Positions 7,770 through 31,123 of a stretch of DNA of 64,000 nt are shown one piece after another. The translations under genes and the position numbers were made by a program. The notes beneath the pieces were generated by a model. That model searched no databases. It was not told the DNA's origin and saw nothing but the letters and a program-made list of their open reading frames with translations. Location: the NCBI GenBank assembly GCA_002862085.1, contig PKCK01000075.1, forward strand, positions 1,533 to 65,532, written 5' to 3'. The stretch's first letter is position 1. Every line of letters begins with the position of its first letter. Origin of the DNA: Planctomycetota bacterium. Its GTDB lineage: Bacteria; Planctomycetota; UBA1135; GCA-002686595.

Positions 7770-8975
<1,206 letters not shown>

Positions 8976-22028: not shown

Positions 22029-22403
22029 ATGCCGACCATCAACCAGCTCATTCGCAAGGGCCGCAAGACGCCGCTCAAGCGATCAAAGTCCCCCGTCCTG
22101 GACTCCTGCCCGCAGAAGCGCGGCGTGTGCCTCCAGGTGAAGACGCAGACCCCGAAGAAGCCGAACTCGGCGCTCCGGAAGATCGCGCGTGTTCGCCTGT
22201 CGAACGGCAAGGAGATCACCGCCTACATCCCCGGCGAGGGTCACAACCTCCAGGAACACTCCGTCGTGCTCGTTCGCGGCGGCCGCGTCCGTGACCTCCC
22301 CGGTGTGCGCTACCACATCCTCCGCGGCACCCTCGACACCTCCGGTGTCGACGGCCGCTCCCAGAGCCGCTCCAAGTACGGCTCGAAGCGCCCCAAGAAG
22401 TGA
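22029..22403 (+). CDS. rpsL: 30S ribosomal protein S12
   Basis: MPTINQL; [11 protein letters not shown]; [12 protein letters not shown]. Confidence 0.99.
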
Positions 22404-22579
22404 TTCGCCCCTCCTGATCCAGCCACACCCCCAGCCGGCTCGAGGCACCCGCGCTCCGCGCGTGCTCATCGCGTCACGCAGCCCGGAGCCCCAAGCGTCC
22501 GCAGTTCGGAACCTCCGCCACGCAGCGCCTCGCCGGCAACCCACTCGGCCCCAAGCGGCCGCCGCCAGAGAGCACCAAG

Positions 22580-23074
<495 letters not shown>

Positions 23075-23103
23075 TCGCCAGGGCGATCGCCCCGACCACC
23101 CTG

Positions 23104-23140
23104 GAGGGCTGGAACCCGCGCGCGGGTTGCAGCCCTCTTC
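23104..23140 (+). terminator. hairpin after rpsG (probable terminator)
   Basis: GAGGGCTG/CAGCCCTC arms enclosing AACCCGC/GCGGGTT, followed by TTC. Confidence 0.55.
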
Positions 23141-23306
23141 GCGTTCCACGCCGCCGCCGATGGAGCGCCCGACGCGCGCCTCGCGGTCCGGCGCGCGAGG
23201 GGGCAGGGCTGCTCGAGGGGGCTCGATCCCCGTCTCGGCGCTCCGCGGAGGCTTGTCCCGGACGTCGTTCGAATACGCTCGGGCGCACCGCGAACAGGCT
23301 CCCGTC

Positions 23307-23870
23307 ATGAATCCCGTCTTCGAACTCGATCGCTACACCATCCGCCGCAAGCTCCTGAAGGTCTTCGGGGCGAGCTTCCAGGTCTTCGACCCCGAGGGCC
23401 GCCAGGTGGCCTCCTGCGCGCAGAAGGCCTTCAAGCTGAAGGAGGACATCCGCGTCTTCGAGGACGAGGAGCGAACCAGACCGCTCCTCACCATCCAGGC
23501 GCGCCAGGTCATCGACTTCCACGCCTCCTACGACATCGTCGACGCGGTCGAGGGGGTCAAGGTCGGCGCGGCTCAGCGGGCGGGCGTGAAGTCCATCTTC
23601 CGGGATCACTGGCACGTGCTCGACGCGAACGATCAGCCCATCGCGGAGGTCGAAGAGGACAGCATGGGCATGGCCCTCGTCCGCCGCGTCCTGTTGAACC
23701 TGATCCCGCAGACCTTCCACCTCGACGGCGGCGCCACGTTCAAGCAGCGCTTCAACCCGGTGATCTACAAGCTCGACGTCAGCGTCGATCGCGACGCGAC
23801 CGTGGACCGACGGCTCCTGTTCGGCGTGGCCGTCCTGCTCGCGGCGATCGAGGGGCGTCAGGACAGCTGA
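23307..23870 (+). CDS. LURP-one/tubby C-terminal/scramblase-like protein
   Basis: YTIRRKLLKVFGASFQVFD...KAFKLKEDIRVF...GAAQRAGVKSIFRDHWHVLD; repeated beta-rich units typical of the family. ATG 23307. Confidence 0.65.
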   Translation: MNPVFELDRYTIRRKLLKVFGASFQVFDPEGRQVASCAQKAFKLKEDIRVFEDEERTRPLLTIQARQVIDFHASYDIVDAVEGVKVGAAQRAGVKSIFRDHWHVLDANDQPIAEVEEDSMGMALVRRVLLNLIPQTFHLDGGATFKQRFNPVIYKLDVSVDRDATVDRRLLFGVAVLLAAIEGRQDS

Positions 23871-23878
23871 GCCCGGGC

Positions 23879-24151
23879 GTGCACGACATCCTCACGAGCT
23901 GCGAGCACTGCGCGCACCGCTTCGAGGTCCCCAGGGCCGCGGCGGGGAGCCTGCAGAACTGCCCCTCGTGCGGGAAGGCCACGCGCGTCCCCGGCGAGTC
24001 CGATCCCGCCTGGGTCCCGTTCCAGCTCATCGTCGCGGCGCTCTGCGTCGCGGCGGGGGTCGTCGCGTCGCTCGGTTCCGGACCGGTGGCGGGCTTCGCG
24101 GTGGGGGGCGGTCTGCTGGCCGCTGCCCTCCTGCTGCGGGCGGCGCTCTGA
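23879..24151 (+). CDS. Zn-ribbon (CxxC...CxxC) small membrane protein
   Basis: CEHC and CPSC motifs followed by two hydrophobic helices; GTG start. Confidence 0.65.
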   Translation: MHDILTSCEHCAHRFEVPRAAAGSLQNCPSCGKATRVPGESDPAWVPFQLIVAALCVAAGVVASLGSGPVAGFAVGGGLLAAALLLRAAL

Positions 24152-24268
24152 TCCCGCTCGCCTGCCTGGAGTCGGACCCCCGCCGCCTCCGGCCCGCGAC
24201 GGCGGCGGGGGACCACGGACCGCGGAGGGCGCCTGCGGGTCGGCTCCGCGCTGTGGTCCAATGGTCCC

Positions 24269-24754
24269 ATGGAGCGCGCCAGCACGCCCCTCGACGTCCT
24301 CATCCTCCGCGACCCCAAGGAGTCGCCGCGGAAGTGCTCGCTCGTTCCGCTGCGCGGGACGCCGGGGATCGAGTTCGTGGCCTACGACCGCGAGCGGACC
24401 CTCGACGGGGCCGGACGCGTCCTGCTCGACCCGGCTGGAGATCCGATCACGGCTGCCGACGTGGGCAAGCCGCTCCTGGTCCTCGACTCCAGCTGGCGCC
24501 GGCTGCCGAAGCTGCGCGACGCCGTCATGGGGGATCCCGTGTCCAGGCGGCTTCCGCCGCTGCGCACCGCCTACCCCCGCAAGAGCCGCGACTTCGAGGA
24601 CCCGGCCGAAGGGCTCGCGTCCGTGGAGGCGCTCTACGCCGCCCTGCGATTGCTCGGCCACGACGGCATCGACCACCTGCTCGCGGACTACCGCTGGGCG
24701 GACGAGTTCCTCGAGATGAACGCCGAGGCGCTCGCGTCGCCGCCGGGCGCCTGA
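24269..24754 (+). CDS. Tsr3/DUF367-like aminocarboxypropyltransferase homolog
   Basis: ESPRKCSL, LDSSW, RRLPPLRTAYP, LASVEALYAAL and YRWADEFLEMN occur in the same order as the Tsr3 motifs (DPKxCS, D/ECSW, RxLPxLxAANP, LxxxEAxAAxL, FxWGxxFLxxN). Confidence 0.7.
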   Translation: MERASTPLDVLILRDPKESPRKCSLVPLRGTPGIEFVAYDRERTLDGAGRVLLDPAGDPITAADVGKPLLVLDSSWRRLPKLRDAVMGDPVSRRLPPLRTAYPRKSRDFEDPAEGLASVEALYAALRLLGHDGIDHLLADYRWADEFLEMNAEALASPPGA

Positions 24755-24877
24755 GCGTCGCGCGGACGCGCCGCGCCCGCGGCCCCGCTCGCCTTCAGGG
24801 CTCGCGAAGCGCCTCCGCCTCGCGCGGAGAGCGCACATCGGGGCACGGCCAGGGAGCTCCCGGCTAACCTGCTCTCC

Positions 24878-27286
24878 GTGATCGCCCCGCTCCTGCTCAC
24901 GTCGGCCGCCCTGCTCCAGGGGCCGCCCTTCGACCCGCCGGCCATCGTGCCGCCGGCCCTCTCCGTCCAGCCGCGCTTCGCTCCCTTCGTGGTGCCCGGG
25001 GCGCTGCGAGTCGTCGCCACCGAGGAGGGACTCGAGGGCGCGGCGGCGGTCCTCGCGGACCACCTCGCGCGGCTCATCGGCTCCGAGGTCACGGTGGCAG
25101 CTCCGCCCTCACGATCCGGCGACGTGCTCCTCACCACGGGGTACCTCGTCGACGCGGTCGCGGGCGACCCCGAGGGCTTCTCCATCGAGGTCTTCGGCGA
25201 CCACGTCGCGCTCTCCGGAGCGACCGGGGCCGGCGTGCATCGCGCGGCTTCGCGGCTGCTCCAGCTGCTCGAGCAGGATCCCGAGACCGGGGTGTGGATG
25301 GTGCCCGCGGTCCGGATCGACGACGCGCCGGCTCTCCCGTGGCGCGGGCTGATGCTCGACCTCGCGCGCTTCCCCCATCCGGTCGAGTCGGTGGAGGAGG
25401 CGATCGAGCTCGCTTACCTGTTCTCGCTCAACACGGTGCAGCTGCACCTCTCCGACGACCAGGCCTTCACCTTCCCGGCGTCCTGCCTGCCTCCGCGAAC
25501 GGGGCCGCTCGCCGGCGACGCGGATCGCGGCTACACGCGCGAGGACATCGCGCGCCTCGTGCGCTTCGCGGACGCGCGCGGGGTCGTCCTGGTGCCGGAG
25601 ATCGACATGCCGGCCCACGCGAGCTCGCTCGTGCGCGCGCGGCCCGACCTCTTCGGGTCCTTCGACGAGGAGAAGGACGCGTGGGTCTCGACCGGTGTCA
25701 TCAACATGGCCTCGCCAGGAGCGCTCGAGGCCCTCGACCAGCTCCTCGCCGAGGTCGCCGCCGCCTTCCCGTCCAGCCCCTGGATCCACCTCGGCGGTGA
25801 CGAGGTCCGGGCTCCGGGACTCGTGGACACGCCGGAGTTCGCGCCCTACGCGGCCGCGCACTCGATCCCGACCACCGTGCAGGAGGGAGCGATCGGCGAG
25901 CTCCTCGGTCACTTCCTCGGTCGGATGGCCCGGCGCGTCACCGACCTCGGTCGCACCCCGGTCCTCTGGGAGGGTTTCCGCGCGGCGAAGGTCGAGGCGA
26001 ACCGCGTGCCCTCCGACGTGGTCGTCATGAGCTGGAGCCAGAGCTCCACCTCGCCGGAGGAGCTCCTCGAGCGCGGCCACGGCGTGATCAACTGCAACTG
26101 GGAGCCGCTCTACGTCGTGCCGGCCCAGGGGTGGGCGAGCCAGCCGCGCCACGCCTGGGACTGGCAGCCGCGCCTGCTGCGCCAGCGCCACGGAGGGAAG
26201 GAGACGCGCCTCGCCGCGGACGCGGACCTGCGCGGCGCGCAGGTCTGCGTGTGGGAGCAGCGGCCGGACGCCATCGTCCCGTCCCTGGTGCCGCTGCTGC
26301 CCGAGCTCGCCACGCGCATGTGGGGGACCGGAGGCGACGCGGAGTTCGGCGCCTTCGACGCCCGTTCGAAGCGCGCGCGCGCGCGCGCGATGAGGCTCCT
26401 CCGCCCCGTTGAAGTCGAGGCCGAAGGACTCGTCGCGAGGACGGGCATCCTCTTCGAGGAGACGCTGTCGGTGCGCCTCACCGCGCCCGCCGGACTCGAG
26501 GTGCGCTACCGCGTGGGAGAGGCCGGTGAGGTCCGGAGTCCGCTGGGAAGTGACGCCGCGGTCTGGGACGGGGAGCCGATCTCCATCGAGGAGAGCGCGC
26601 TCGTCACCGCGCGGGCGTTCGCCGGGGATCGGCCCGTGGGTTTCGCGACCGAGGTGCGCTTCCAGCGGGGCACGCCGGTGCTTCGCCACTTCGCCCACGA
26701 GCTGCCGCAGGGTGGCGTGATCACCCCCGCGATCCTCGACGAGACCTGGGCGGACGGCGGGAGCCAGATCGGCGCCGGCGTCCTCGCAGCCCCGGACGCC
26801 GATCGCATGACCGCGATCAACCGTGAGCTGTTCGCGAAGGTGCGCGACCGGCTCCCCCTGCGCAGCCACGTGGACCTTCGGCCCCTCGCCTGGGAGGTGG
26901 TGGGGCCCTGGCGGAGGGTCGATCCGCTCCGGCCTCGCATCTGGGGGCGGCACGCGGTCTTCGCCGAGGGGCAGCTGCGGATCCCGGAGCCGGGTCGCTG
27001 GACGCTCTCGGGGACGGCGAGGAGCGGCCTGGCGCGCGTCCACGTCGGAGGGCAGCTCGCCTTGCTCGTCGAGGGGATGGAGGAAGCACGGGCCGGGGCG
27101 GAGCTGGCTGCCGGCATCTACGCGGTGACCATCGAGCTCTCCGTGCCCTTCGTGCACGAGGATCTCCAGCTGCTCTTCCAGCGCGAGGGCGAGGACGATC
27201 CGCTGGCGCTCTACGACCTGCTCCTCGATCTCGACGAGAACGTGCCCGCGGTCGAGCTCTCCTCGGTCTCCGGTCCGTTCCGCTGA
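24878..27286 (+). CDS. glycoside hydrolase family 20 (beta-N-acetylhexosaminidase) with C-terminal Fn3/chitobiase-like and PA14-like domains
   Basis: Signal-like N-terminus, IDDAPALPWRGLMLDLAR, QLHLSDDQ, PEIDMPAH, catalytic HLGGDE, GAQVCVWE. Confidence 0.9.
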   Translation: MIAPLLLTSAALLQGPPFDPPAIVPPALSVQPRFAPFVVPGALRVVATEEGLEGAAAVLADHLARLIGSEVTVAAPPSRSGDVLLTTGYLVDAVAGDPEGFSIEVFGDHVALSGATGAGVHRAASRLLQLLEQDPETGVWMVPAVRIDDAPALPWRGLMLDLARFPHPVESVEEAIELAYLFSLNTVQLHLSDDQAFTFPASCLPPRTGPLAGDADRGYTREDIARLVRFADARGVVLVPEIDMPAHASSLVRARPDLFGSFDEEKDAWVSTGVINMASPGALEALDQLLAEVAAAFPSSPWIHLGGDEVRAPGLVDTPEFAPYAAAHSIPTTVQEGAIGELLGHFLGRMARRVTDLGRTPVLWEGFRAAKVEANRVPSDVVVMSWSQSSTSPEELLERGHGVINCNWEPLYVVPAQGWASQPRHAWDWQPRLLRQRHGGKETRLAADADLRGAQVCVWEQRPDAIVPSLVPLLPELATRMWGTGGDAEFGAFDARSKRARARAMRLLRPVEVEAEGLVARTGILFEETLSVRLTAPAGLEVRYRVGEAGEVRSPLGSDAAVWDGEPISIEESALVTARAFAGDRPVGFATEVRFQRGTPVLRHFAHELPQGGVITPAILDETWADGGSQIGAGVLAAPDADRMTAINRELFAKVRDRLPLRSHVDLRPLAWEVVGPWRRVDPLRPRIWGRHAVFAEGQLRIPEPGRWTLSGTARSGLARVHVGGQLALLVEGMEEARAGAELAAGIYAVTIELSVPFVHEDLQLLFQREGEDDPLALYDLLLDLDENVPAVELSSVSGPFR

Positions 27287-27413
27287 GCCGCGGGCGGCCT
27301 GGCCGCTCGAATCGTGCGGGGCTGGCTTGGGGTGACGGGCGCGGGCGGCCATCCGTGCAGCCCCGGGGCGAAATCGCCTCGGACCGGAGTGTCCGCTCCG
27401 TATCGTGGCCCAC

Positions 27414-29510
27414 ATGTCCGTGCCCGAGGAAGCGCCCGGAGCCGGTCGCTCGATCCGCAACGTCGGAATCTGCGCCCACATCGACGCGGGGAAGACGACC
27501 CTCACGGAGCGGATCCTCCACGTCACGGGCCGCGAGCGCTACGTGGGCCGCGTGGACGAGGGCACCTCGGTCATGGACTGGATGGCCGAGGAGCGGGAGC
27601 GCGGGATCACCATCGCCGCCGCCGCCACGCGCGTGAGCTGGGGCGACGCCGAGATCAACCTCGTGGACACGCCGGGTCACGTGGACTTCACCGTCGAGGT
27701 CGAACGCTGCATGCGGGTCCTCGACGGCGCGGTGCTCGTGCTGGACGCGACCCATGGGGTCGAGCCGCAGACCGAAACGGTGTGGCGACAGGTGGCGGCG
27801 CGCGGCCTCCCCGCCATCGCGTTCGCGAACAAGTGCGAGCGACCCGGCGCCGACGTCCTCGGATGCGCGCGCTCGATCTCCGTGCGCCTCGGGGCGCGCG
27901 CGGTCAACGTGGCGTATCCGGTGGGTGGGGGGGACACCGACGAGGCGCTCAGCGCGATCATCGACCTCGTGCACATGCGAGCATGGCGGCTGGACCGCGC
28001 GGGCCAGCGACGGTCCGTCGAGGTGCGGCCCGAGTCGATGGAGGAGGCGGCGGTGCTGCGCGCCGAGCTCGTGGACGTCCTCGCCGATCGCGACGAGGTC
28101 TTGTTCGAGGCGATCTGCGACGGCCGTGACCCGAGCGGTGAGGAGGTCATGCGGTCGCTGCGGACCCTGACCCTCGCGAAGGAGGTCGTGCCGCTGTTCT
28201 GCGGGGCGGCGCTGCCCGGTCACGGGGTGCCGCTGCTGCTGGACGGCGTGGCCTCCTTGCTGCCAGCGCCCCACGAGGCCGCGCCGCCGGAGGTCTTCGA
28301 CGCGTCGAGCGGAGCGCCTCAGCCGGGTGTGCCCCTGCCCGAGCCCCTGGCGCTCTGCTTCAAGGTTCACTCGAAGGTCCGGCGCGGCGTGCGCAGCGAC
28401 CTCACCTTCGTTCGCGTTCACCGCGGAGAGATCGTGCCCGGGACGAGGCTCTGGAACGGCCGATCCGGCGTCACGGAGGAGGTGGACACGGTCCTGCGGA
28501 TCCACGCGAGCGAGGTCGAGCACGTCGACGGCGCGGCGGCCGGCGACATCGTCGCCCTCGGCGGGCTGCGGGCGACCGGGACGGGGGACACGCTCATCGC
28601 GGAGGGGAGCGAGCTGCGCCTCGAGCCGCCCCGCGTCCCCACGCCGGTCCTGGGGGTCCTCGTCGAGCCGCGCCGTGACGAGGAGCGTATTCCTCTCCGG
28701 GACGCCCTCGAGCAGCTCGCCCGGGAAGACCCCTCTTTGAAGGTGTCCGAGGACCGGGCGAGCGGGCAGTGGCTCCTGGAGGGAATGGGCGAGCTGCACA
28801 TCGACATCGCCGTGGCGCGCCTCGACGCGGAGTTCGGGGTCGAGCCGCGGGTCGGCCCGCCTCGTGTGGCGTTCCGGGAGGCCGTGCGGCTGGAGGCGTC
28901 GGGCGCGGGCACGGTCGAGCGGACGCTCGAGGGTGCCAGGGTCCACGCGGAGGTCGAGCTGCGCCTCGAACCCCTCCCGGAGGCGTCCTCGATCCTCGAC
29001 GTGGAAGGGCTCGGTCGCACCGCTTCCGGGGAGGACCTCGTCCTGAGCGGCCGGGCATGGCGTGGCATCCGGGCGGCCCTGCGGGCGGAGGCTGGCTCGG
29101 GCCCCCTCGTCGGTCATCCCCTCTGCGGGACCCGGATCCGCCTGACCGCAGCCCGCTCCCTCAGCGGCGGCGCGCCGGAGGCCGTCTGGGAACAGGCCGC
29201 GGTGGCCGGGCTGCGTGAGGCCCTCAAATCGGCGGTCACTGCGGGAGGCGTCGAGCTCCTCGAGCCCTGGATGGCCTTCACCGTCGACACCCCCGACGAC
29301 GTCTCCAGCGGCGTGATCGGCGATCTGAACGCGCGGCGCGCCAGCATGGAGGAGATCGTCTCGACCGGGACCGAGTCCCGACGAGTCTCGGGGACGGCGC
29401 CCCTCAGGGAGCTCATCGGGTACTCCACCGAGCTCCGTAGCCTCTCGAAGGGGCGGGCCACCTTCAATCTCGCCCCGGCTGGCCTCGCTCCATCGCCCGG
29501 CGCTGGCTGA
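27414..29510 (+). CDS. fusA: divergent elongation factor G (EF-G2-like)
   Basis: AHIDAGKTT, RERGITI and DTPGHVDF motifs; EF-G domains III (EDPS, GMGELH) and V (ELLEPWM, YSTELRSLSKGRA) present; domain IV divergent. ATG 27414 is preceded by TATCGT. Confidence 0.88.
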   Translation: MSVPEEAPGAGRSIRNVGICAHIDAGKTTLTERILHVTGRERYVGRVDEGTSVMDWMAEERERGITIAAAATRVSWGDAEINLVDTPGHVDFTVEVERCMRVLDGAVLVLDATHGVEPQTETVWRQVAARGLPAIAFANKCERPGADVLGCARSISVRLGARAVNVAYPVGGGDTDEALSAIIDLVHMRAWRLDRAGQRRSVEVRPESMEEAAVLRAELVDVLADRDEVLFEAICDGRDPSGEEVMRSLRTLTLAKEVVPLFCGAALPGHGVPLLLDGVASLLPAPHEAAPPEVFDASSGAPQPGVPLPEPLALCFKVHSKVRRGVRSDLTFVRVHRGEIVPGTRLWNGRSGVTEEVDTVLRIHASEVEHVDGAAAGDIVALGGLRATGTGDTLIAEGSELRLEPPRVPTPVLGVLVEPRRDEERIPLRDALEQLAREDPSLKVSEDRASGQWLLEGMGELHIDIAVARLDAEFGVEPRVGPPRVAFREAVRLEASGAGTVERTLEGARVHAEVELRLEPLPEASSILDVEGLGRTASGEDLVLSGRAWRGIRAALRAEAGSGPLVGHPLCGTRIRLTAARSLSGGAPEAVWEQAAVAGLREALKSAVTAGGVELLEPWMAFTVDTPDDVSSGVIGDLNARRASMEEIVSTGTESRRVSGTAPLRELIGYSTELRSLSKGRATFNLAPAGLAPSPGAG

Positions 29511-29594
29511 GCGGCCTCGCTGGGGGAGTCAGCAGCCGACGTGCGGGGCGGAGCGGATTGCAAAACAAAGTTGGCCGGAATCCTCTCCCCGTGA

Positions 29595-29623
29595 TTGACC
29601 CCCCCGGGGGGGGCTCGTACCTT
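29595..29623 (+). promoter_or_regulatory. sigma70 promoter of the S10 operon
   Basis: TTGACC (29595-29600), 17-nt spacer, TACCTT (29618-29623). Confidence 0.7.
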
Positions 29624-29978
29624 CTTCGCCCCTTGCCCGAACGGCAGGAGTCCCGAATCAGCCCGGAGCGACCATCCGACGCTGACCGGGGATCTCCTCC
29701 GGCCGGGTCGGAGACCTATGTGAGCCGCCGCCGCGCGCGCCCACCTCATCCGGCCCTCACCCGAGCGAGGACGCCCCGGCAGCGCCCCCCAGCGCCCTCT
29801 GCCGGTGCACGAATCCCCCCGAACACCCGCCTCACGGCCCCGGCCCCTCCGCCGCGCCGTCGGCGGAGCCCGCGCCGGGCCCCTTCCGGCGCGACCATCA
29901 CCACCGGACCCCAACGCCCCCCTGGCCCGACGCCGGGGCCGCCCCTGCCGGCGGCCTCACAGGGTCGAGCCCACTCAC

Positions 29979-30284
<306 letters not shown>

Positions 30285-30487
30285 TCCTCCAGCGCGTCCC
30301 GCGTCCGCTTCTCGGCGACCGCGGGGCGCTGCTTTTCCCTCAACTCGAACCCACCGCGTGGCCAGGCGTCGCCGGCGCGTGTTCCCGTCCCCGCCAAGGG
30401 GGAGGGCGCACTGCCCGGCCCGGGTCGAACCGGTGATCCCCAACACTCGGGGCGCGGCCTTCTCGGTCCGCCCTCGCTCACGAAGTT

Positions 30488-31123
30488 ATGACGCTACTTC
30501 TTGGACGTAAGAGAGGCATGACGCAGCTCTTCGCCGACGACGGCACGGTCACCCCGGTGACCGTCGTCGAGGCGGGGCCCTGCACCGTCATGCAGCTGCG
30601 GACCCAGGAGACGGACGGCTACGACGCCGTCCAGCTCGGCTACGAGGACGTCCGCGACAAGGTCTCCAACAAGCCCCAGGTGGAGCAGGCCAAGAAGGTC
30701 GGCACCGCCCCGAAGCGCTTCCTCCGCGAGGAGCGCCTCGCCGCGCCCGCCGAGGTCGAGGTCGGCGCCCAGGTGACCGTCGAGGCCTTCGAGGCCGGTC
30801 ACCTGGTCGACGTCATCGGCACCACCAAGGGCCGCGGCTTCGCCGGCACGATCAAGCGCCACGGGTTCGCCCGAGGCCCCAAGACCCACGGCTCGATGAA
30901 CTATCGCCGTCCGGGTTCGATCGGCTGCTCGGCCTACCCGGGCCGCGTCTTCAAGGGCAAGCGCATGTCCGGCCACTACGGCGCCAAGCGCAAGACCGTG
31001 AAGAACCTCGAGATCATGCGCGTCGACGCCGAGCGGAACCTGCTCCTCATCAAGGGCTCGATCCCCGGCCACAACGGCGCCTTCGTCCAGGTCCAGACCG
31101 CGCGCACGGGCGTGCAGAAGTAG
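30488..31123 (+). CDS. rplC: 50S ribosomal protein L3
   Basis: GRKRGMTQ; KGRGFAGTIKRHGF; VFKGKRMSGHYG. Confidence 0.98.
   Translation: MTLLLGRKRGMTQLFADDGTVTPVTVVEAGPCTVMQLRTQETDGYDAVQLGYEDVRDKVSNKPQVEQAKKVGTAPKRFLREERLAAPAEVEVGAQVTVEAFEAGHLVDVIGTTKGRGFAGTIKRHGFARGPKTHGSMNYRRPGSIGCSAYPGRVFKGKRMSGHYGAKRKTVKNLEIMRVDAERNLLLIKGSIPGHNGAFVQVQTARTGVQK

Follow-up and report, generated by a model that had tools for sequence, protein, structure and literature searches.

A tip-less EF-G paralog in the str-operon slot of a marine planctomycete, probably a non-translocase of the spdEFG2 type with ribosome recycling as its most likely role

A split of elongation factor G (EF-G) function between paralogs in planctomycetes has been described since 2011 (PMC3150367). 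The closest described protein is spdEFG2 (PMC3150367; Atkinson 2015, PMC4342817), exemplified by Borrelia burgdorferi EF-G2: a second EF-G, always found beside another and also present in planctomycetes, with a diverged domain IV tip, an intact GTPase and a proposed role in recycling. Two factors that act only in recycling, B. burgdorferi EF-G2 and human EF-G2mt, have a loop I of the tip that differs from that of their translocase partners (PMC8203779). Here we describe a related gene from a marine planctomycete metagenome-assembled genome (MAG; 4.39 Mb in 132 contigs, ~90% complete). It lies in a 64,000-nucleotide stretch of contig C11, referred to as the window, and encodes an EF-G homolog between rpsG and rpsJ that has lost both tip loops of domain IV. 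On balance we favor the reading that this tip-less protein is an intact, expressed and selectively maintained paralog of the spdEFG2/EF-G2mt type that does not translocate and most likely acts in recycling that depends on the ribosome recycling factor (RRF).

In Escherichia coli EF-G, loops I and II are both essential for translocation, and deletion of loop I abolishes translocation but not recycling (PMC4666400). In mitochondria, a short C-terminal helix allows EF-G2mt to bind alongside RRF, whereas the C-terminal helix of EF-G1mt, lengthened with a C-terminal extension, clashes with RRF (PMC8203779). A helix of human EF-G2mt contacts RRF domain II (PMC8203779); by our mapping it would be the equivalent of helix alpha-2 of domain IV. 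The canonical EF-G gene (EFG I) lies within the str operon (Margus 2011, PMC3150367), and in Planctopirus limnophila the ribosomal gene block that contains an EF-G gene has been reported as essential (PMC10632474). Pseudomonas aeruginosa also has two EF-Gs, EF-G1A in the str operon and EF-G1B elsewhere, of which the str copy is not necessarily the main translocase (PMC3832671).

The window protein resembles human EF-G2mt, or ribosome-releasing factor 2 (PDB 7L20, 7NSH; PMC8203779), in its five-domain fold, a switch I of the form VD(D/E)G, changes in loop I and a short C-terminus. EF-G2mt differs in keeping NKxD at G4 and most of its loops, and the window protein is closer to bacterial EF-G, with 391 bits against EF-G2mt, 334 against EF-G1mt and 478 against Thermus thermophilus EF-G in sequence comparison. 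With canonical EF-G (FusA; T. thermophilus, 1DAR/4V90, and E. coli) it shares architecture, motifs G1-G3, the rpsG-rpsJ slot and 35-39% identity, but it lacks the tip motifs and the C-terminal helix, reads NKCE at G4 and has only average codon bias. It departs from described spdEFG2 proteins in the NKCE motif and the missing C-terminal helix, and in having an EFG I-like partner without the switch-I insertion of spdEFG1. For Borrelia EF-G2 a single Gly substitution is described, whereas the tip of the window protein is far more degenerate. In P. aeruginosa, both EF-Gs are EFG I; the window str copy, by contrast, has lost its tip.

By domain architecture, the window protein belongs to the EF-G/EF2 family. 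The Pfam models GTP_EFTU, D2, EFG_III and EFG_C all score over threshold, and EFG_IV reaches 22.5 bits (gathering score 24). An AlphaFold2 (AF2) model (pLDDT 89.6, pTM 0.84) has a five-domain EF-G fold with the fold of domain IV kept, and its top Foldseek matches are EF-G and mtEFG2 structures (E about 1e-57 to 1e-64 for the latter). A preliminary description of this DNA had called motifs G1-G3 intact, G4 altered to NKCE and both domain IV tip loops degenerate. Translation and alignment confirmed the GTPase motifs, with NKCE exactly at 27828-27839, and both tip motifs are missing where alignment with T. thermophilus and E. coli EF-G places them (Table 1).

Loss of the tip is more than chance: conservation at the tip positions is 80-99% among 37 canonical planctomycete EF-Gs but 20-50% among 132 tip-less homologs, with the G domain equally conserved in the two groups (0.82 in canonical and 0.81 in tip-less copies). 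Within domain IV, helix alpha-2 and the GPxxGxP segment remain 80-99% conserved in the 132 homologs, and only the tip is free. The loop II site is variable and carries insertions of 9-23 amino acids in some members of the genus-level clade, a group of 31 sequences 60-94% identical to the window protein. These insertions are acidic and belong to one sub-branch of the clade, with L038 (from G012, identical to P0022 of Saltatorellus ferox Poly30), L055, P0018-P0020 and P0027. With both of the loops that enter the decoding center lost, translocation of the tRNA-mRNA complex is very unlikely, and we hold with high confidence that the window protein is a specialized non-translocase of the spdEFG2 type.

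A genome-wide family search found one further EF-G, at C87:11343-12500, which is ended by the contig edge at residue 426. It reads NKMD at G4, has the canonical switch I VHDGAATMD and carries no switch-I insertion. The closest relative (G016) has a full-length copy that matches it at 98.8% identity over 412 amino acids and in which the canonical loops QSGGSGQY and SHDVDSS are both intact. Neither tblastn nor phmmer found the C-terminal half of the C87 protein in the assembly, and we treat the missing 3' half as an assembly gap, not as a truncated gene. The C87 gene is preceded by a long open reading frame (ORF) on the + strand (L001:1-1017), and no ribosomal protein gene lies in the 1.4 kb upstream. 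The genome has one frr gene, for RRF.

Codon usage separates the two EF-Gs. The window gene has a codon adaptation index (CAI) of 0.56 and an effective number of codons (Nc) of 34.7, at the 63rd percentile of long ORFs. For tuf, rpoB, rpoC and the C87 EF-G the CAI values are 0.80, 0.81, 0.78 and 0.84, with Nc of 27-29, at or above the 99th percentile; the C87 gene has the strongest codon bias measured in the genome. The preliminary description had proposed that the window copy is less codon-biased than the neighboring tuf and rpo genes and that other fusA paralogs should be sought, with the true translocase elsewhere in the genome. The first point holds (0.56 against 0.78-0.81), the window protein is not the only EF-G of its genome, and the canonical-type, highly codon-biased NKMD protein on C87 would by its sequence be that translocase.

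The pairing is conserved among relatives. In 17 of 17 same-genus genomes, a copy scoring 527-570 bits on the EF-G equivalog model TIGR00484 stands beside a canonical copy (>900 bits where whole); in two fragmentary assemblies of the genus (G001, G003), the canonical EF-G gives only partial matches. The non-str copies of relatives score 900-997 bits. The rest of the order likewise has both copies. At the loci of the order and phylum for which flanks were obtained, rpsL-rpsG and rpsJ-rplC bracket the tip-less copy (rpsL-rpsG fell outside the fetched flank in a few loci), and no ribosomal protein genes were found around the canonical copy within the fetched flanks. More distant planctomycete genomes again hold a tip-less copy in the str slot, and named tip-less EF-Gs of an Isosphaeraceae MAG and a Pseudobdellovibrionaceae MAG sit in the slot rpsG-[X]-rpsJ. 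Automatic annotation in the sources labels the gene in the fusA slot 'elongation factor G' or 'GTP-binding protein'.

The link between this arrangement and the published subfamily comes from two genomes of family f13 (G075, G094). Their non-str copy carries AHIDSGKTT and a three-residue switch-I insertion, seen in f13 genomes only, and their str copies are tip-less with switch I VD(D/E)G. This insertion is diagnostic of spdEFG1 (Margus et al. 2011, PMC3150367), and so the tip-less str copy of f13 corresponds to published spdEFG2. A basic C-terminal extension, similar to that of EF-G1mt, was observed in the spdEFG1-type copy of G075 and in the non-str canonical copy of G028 (L059, L012); the canonical EF-G of the window genus has none. 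Other genera of the family and other families of the order have a third, EFG II-type paralog (L043, L045, L047, L049, L051, L056; G020-G040), in which G1 reads GHxxSGKT, RGITI is relaxed and the basic tip loops are intact. No EFG II-type copy was found in the window genome or its genus at the thresholds used.

Relationships were examined in a careful maximum-likelihood tree of 46 rows (LG+C20) and in a quick tree with named sequences added and SH-aLRT support. In the careful tree, the planctomycete group (100/99) splits in two. One branch is a clade of tip-bearing non-str copies (100/99); the other, a 'str lineage' (85/79), contains tip-bearing single-copy str EF-Gs and all tip-less copies. 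The lineage of the window protein is supported at 100/96 up to genomes of other families. As the trees have it, the tip was lost from the copy at the ancestral locus and kept by a duplicate. The quick tree gathers 20 planctomycete tip-less EF-Gs, including the window protein, the str copies of G075 and G094, and named Planctomycetaceae and Isosphaeraceae copies, in one clade (SH-aLRT 93). Since this clade includes str copies with insertion-bearing partners, it represents the published spdEFG2 type, and the window protein is placed by its sequence as a member of the planctomycete spdEFG2-type clade.

The preliminary description had invoked the divided EF-G systems of Spirochaetes, Planctomycetes and Deltaproteobacteria as precedents and had proposed a phylogeny with the EF-G subfamilies. 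The grouping with the planctomycete spdEFG2 type stands, with EFG II apart, but the tip-less copies of Bdellovibrionota and Desulfosarcina fall separately. A second EF-G, the conserved pairing and membership of the tip-less clade all point in the direction it had suggested, namely that the protein is probably a specialized factor and not a canonical translocase. It had also suggested a recycling role and possibly an altered nucleotide specificity; both may hold, and the D-to-E change in G4 is real, fixed and specific to the clade.

Other assignments were considered and set aside. For canonical EF-G (TIGR00484/EFG I), the window protein scores 543.3 bits, below the cut-off of 659.4, and the tip motifs are absent; the str location does fit. 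EFG II (for example T. thermophilus EF-G-2) is recognized by G1 GHxxxGKT, a relaxed RGITI and a conserved basic loop I. The window protein instead reads AHIDAGKTT, keeps RGITI and lacks a loop I motif, and true EFG II copies of related genomes form a separate clade with 100% support. A tetracycline ribosomal protection protein was rejected at 315 bits, mainly from the G domain, against a tet_protect cut-off of 775. A caveat to the spdEFG2 assignment is that spdEFG2 is described as occurring with an spdEFG1 partner in a genome without EFG I; the C87 protein and its orthologs have no insertion, and those of relatives pass the equivalog cut-off.

Selection on the window gene is purifying, with a ratio of nonsynonymous to synonymous substitution rates (dN/dS) of 0.138 against a contig of 92% amino acid identity and 0.095 against G016, so the gene is not a pseudogene. 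Against the 92%-identity contig, dN/dS is 0.035 in domain III, 0.08 in domain V and 0.09 in the G core (residues 1-160), and the highest values among the six regions scored are those of G' (0.22) and domain IV (0.21). In the N-terminal region compared between the window genome and G016, the canonical copy has dN 0.009 and dS 0.066, and the tip-less copy dN 0.030 and dS 0.277. The tip-less copy thus evolves 3-4 times faster in both dN and dS, at a similar ratio and under weak codon selection. Intact full-length homologs with invariant GTPase residues occur in >130 genomes and contigs. Metatranscriptome contigs from three marine studies match 27872-28481 and 29085-29358 with 0-1 differences; these matches establish presence in RNA libraries only, without level, strand or transcript ends, and the uncovered parts are uninformative.

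A signature difference between the genus-level clade and all other EF-Gs sampled is the residue at the end of G4. Glutamate is fixed there in 31/31 clade members, whereas aspartate is found in 101/101 other tip-less copies, 37/37 canonical planctomycete EF-Gs and 77/77 named EF-Gs of many phyla, giving 0/215 with glutamate outside the clade. The named EF-Gs, used for this count and as outgroups, came from a genome-contig scan with the G1 and G3 peptides, among the matches listed and at 35-40% identity; they are a near-random set and not close relatives of the window protein. The clade sits on a long branch (0.42-0.56) and has 36 clade-fixed substitutions, the D-to-E change in G4 among them. 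Because its sister sequence (G020) reads NKCD, NKCE arose once, on the long branch to the clade and alongside 35 other fixed substitutions. The clade is also distinguished by the missing C-terminal helix, which both canonical EF-G and the wider tip-less clade retain.

A literature search on NKxD versus NKxE found no paper. In the YchF/OLA1 family, G4 reads NxxE, with Asp replaced by Glu, and this is associated with a preference for ATP over GTP. YchF/OLA1 is a natural P-loop NTPase family with Glu at G4, as in the window NKCE, but it is an unrelated, Obg-like family with a different pocket context, and we take the likeness as a lead for NKCE only, not as evidence.

We propose the following model, in which the division of labor would follow the tip. 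Translocation would be carried out by the canonical-looking, codon-optimized C87 EF-G, encoded outside the ribosomal operons. The str-position copy, with what looks like a working GTPase center (P-loop, switch I Thr, catalytic His) and with domains II, III and V kept along with the main part of domain IV, would bind the ribosomal GTPase center. Its domains III-V would then push RRF domain II against bridge B2a and so split post-termination ribosomes, with the tip region serving only as a steric wedge. The genus-level clade would have drifted further, from NKxD to NKCE and with loss of the C-terminal helix. A factor used once per protein together with RRF would fit the retained GTPase, domain III and upper domain IV, the short C-terminus, the presence of just one frr gene and a codon bias that is moderate, and RRF-dependent recycling is in our analysis the most likely job.

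Several observations weigh against assigning recycling to this protein. In E. coli, deletion of loop II abolishes recycling as well as translocation, and most single substitutions there are harmless (PMC4666400). Recycling in the E. coli manner therefore cannot be assumed for a protein without the loop II motif, and a steric rather than sequence-specific role of loop II would have to be assumed here. Since most point mutants are harmless and the length of loop II is kept in the window protein, the E. coli result calls for caution and is not a refutation. The NKCE motif might weaken or change nucleotide binding. Atkinson and Baldauf reportedly noted in 2011 that spd/mtEFG2 proteins show little conservation of recycling-related sites. 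Exclusive monophyly of the planctomycete tip-less copies has only moderate support (careful tree, 64/83; quick tree, 93), and the delta-proteobacterial-type tip-less EF-Gs of Bdellovibrionota and Desulfosarcina form their own clade in a polytomy of the quick tree, which was built without spirochaete or mitochondrial sequences.

Two further points on that side come from the partner EF-G and from other genomes. The partner, with no spdEFG1 insertion and no C-terminal extension in the genus, may do both jobs, and because it has the look of a dual-function factor the tip-less copy may have another role. In genomes of two other families, the str tip-less matches, G040:C10:1695284-1697248 (L050) and G037:C67:30867-32903, contain one in-frame stop each (TGA and TAA, respectively); the stops may reflect errors of assembly or a local decay of the paralog, and they hint that the tip-less copy can be dispensable. 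The G040 str copy is very divergent (AHINAGKTT, RGISI, end branch 1.48).

If the partner does both jobs, the window protein could be a ribosome-binding GTPase repurposed for regulation or for rescuing or splitting ribosomes that have stalled or are hibernating. The new role would then be marked by NKCE and by the absence of the C-terminal helix, and the long branch with its 36 fixed substitutions and a D-to-E change seen in none of the 215 other EF-Gs is in keeping with this, as are the loss of a loop II motif that is important for recycling in E. coli and a partner that looks fully canonical (>900 bits on TIGR00484 in relatives). We nevertheless think such repurposing unlikely: the protein has gained no new domain and no conserved new tip motif, the tip being its least conserved part; it is nested in a clade whose characterized analogues are recycling factors; and each of the 17 genus genomes keeps the gene among ribosomal genes. 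It is somewhat more doubtful that, in the genus-level clade around S. ferox Poly30, the str EF-G has gone past a recycling-only EF-G2, beside a paralog that looks fully dual-function. It might then have altered nucleotide affinity, exchange or specificity, as in the NxxE ATPases of the YchF family, and might also serve in splitting or rescue apart from routine RRF-dependent recycling.

The five-domain architecture, the catalytic GTPase residues and a position in the str slot that is normally that of canonical fusA would also suit an alternative, slow or condition-specific translocase, comparable to the second EF-Gs found in Pseudomonas or Bacteroides. This is very improbable, since both tip loops needed for translocation are missing and unconstrained, the TIGR00484 score lies under the cut-off, and codon bias is average in a genome whose other copy is optimized like tuf. 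We give still less credence to a decaying gene left open by chance or by its operon position, to which the faster evolution relative to the paralog, the degenerate tip, the altered G4 Asp and the in-frame stops in two other genomes of the order might be attributed. Against decay stand the low dN/dS, above all in domain III, the >130 intact full-length homologs with invariant GTPase residues, a confident AF2 model and an NKCE motif that is fixed rather than variable. Recycling as an spdEFG2-type factor is the reading that we prefer.

The gene order of the window, 5' to 3', is tuf (7770-8975), rpoB, rpoC, rpsL, rpsG, a 4.3-kb block, the EF-G homolog, rpsJ, rplC and the remaining S10 operon. The preliminary description had placed the gene in the str position. 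It does lie between rpsG and rpsJ, but 4.3 kb with four unrelated genes separate it from rpsG, and a gap of 468 nt lies between its 3' end and rpsJ. A 201-kb contig of a near relative (L079) has an identical gene order, the 4.3-kb block included; in the genus members L040, L041 and L054 the spacing from rpsG to the EF-G gene is only ~600 nt. An alternative start of the EF-G paralog is the GTG at 27405, three codons upstream. A promoter and terminator scan of 27000-30100 on both strands found none, which at ~70% G+C is uninformative either way, and a protein atlas look-up returned generic 'EF-G family' clusters only.

Table 1. Position of the tip-less EF-G gene, its motifs and its neighbors in the window
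Feature	Position	Strand	Remarks
Tip-less EF-G paralog, 698 aa	27414..29510	+	Translation without stops; NCBIfam and Pfam matches; AF2; Foldseek
G1 / P-loop	27474..27500	+	AHIDAGKTT, intact
G2	27600..27614	+	RGITI, intact; preceding switch I is VDEG (canonical VHDG)
G3 / switch II	27666..27689	+	DTPGHVDF, catalytic His kept
G4	27828..27839	+	NKCE in place of NKxD
G5 region	28203..28214	+	GAAL (canonical GSAL/F), then PGH where canonical has KNK
Domain IV	28860..29249	+	Fold predicted to be retained, tip not conserved; dN/dS 0.21
Tip loop I position	28914..28955	+	VERTLEGARVHAEV where canonical is QSGGRGQYGH; QSGGxGQ(Y/F) absent, same length
Tip loop II position	29154..29189	+	RSLSGGAPEAVW where canonical is SYHDVDSSE; xHxVDSS, including the conserved His, absent; no length change
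Domain IV helix alpha-2	29190..29234	+	QAAxxALRxAL; most conserved segment of domain IV among 132 tip-less homologs
C-terminal end	29451..29507	+	Stop after last domain V beta-strand, with short Pro/Gly tail
rpsL and rpsG	22029..23074	+	Upstream str-operon genes; rpsL 22029-22403, rpsG 22580-23074
4.3-kb insert, rpsG to EF-G gene	23075..27413	+	Four unrelated genes; context, outside the factor itself
LOR/LURP-one-like gene	~23300-23870		Within 4.3-kb insert
Zn-ribbon membrane protein	23879-24151		Within 4.3-kb insert
Tsr3-like Ribo_biogen_C gene	24269-24754		Within 4.3-kb insert
GH20 hexosaminidase	24878-27286		Within 4.3-kb insert
rpsJ and rplC	29979..31123	+	Start of S10 operon, downstream; rpsJ 29979-30284, rplC ~30488-31123

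Taken together, these observations suggest that across a planctomycete order the gene in the fusA slot would not be the translocase, and that the canonical, translocase-type EF-G would be encoded at an unlinked site. This would bear on annotation, on the use of fusA as a marker gene and on EF-G evolution. Judged by sequence, the fixed NKCE motif and the loss of the C-terminal helix appear new for the genus-level clade, and a canonical-type partner in place of an insertion-bearing spdEFG1 appears new for the order; the novelty is modest. The case extends the division of labor known from spd bacteria and mitochondria and reveals no new principle. The NKCE clade, with its cultured member Poly30, may serve as a natural experiment in which a translational GTPase has had its G4 Asp changed.

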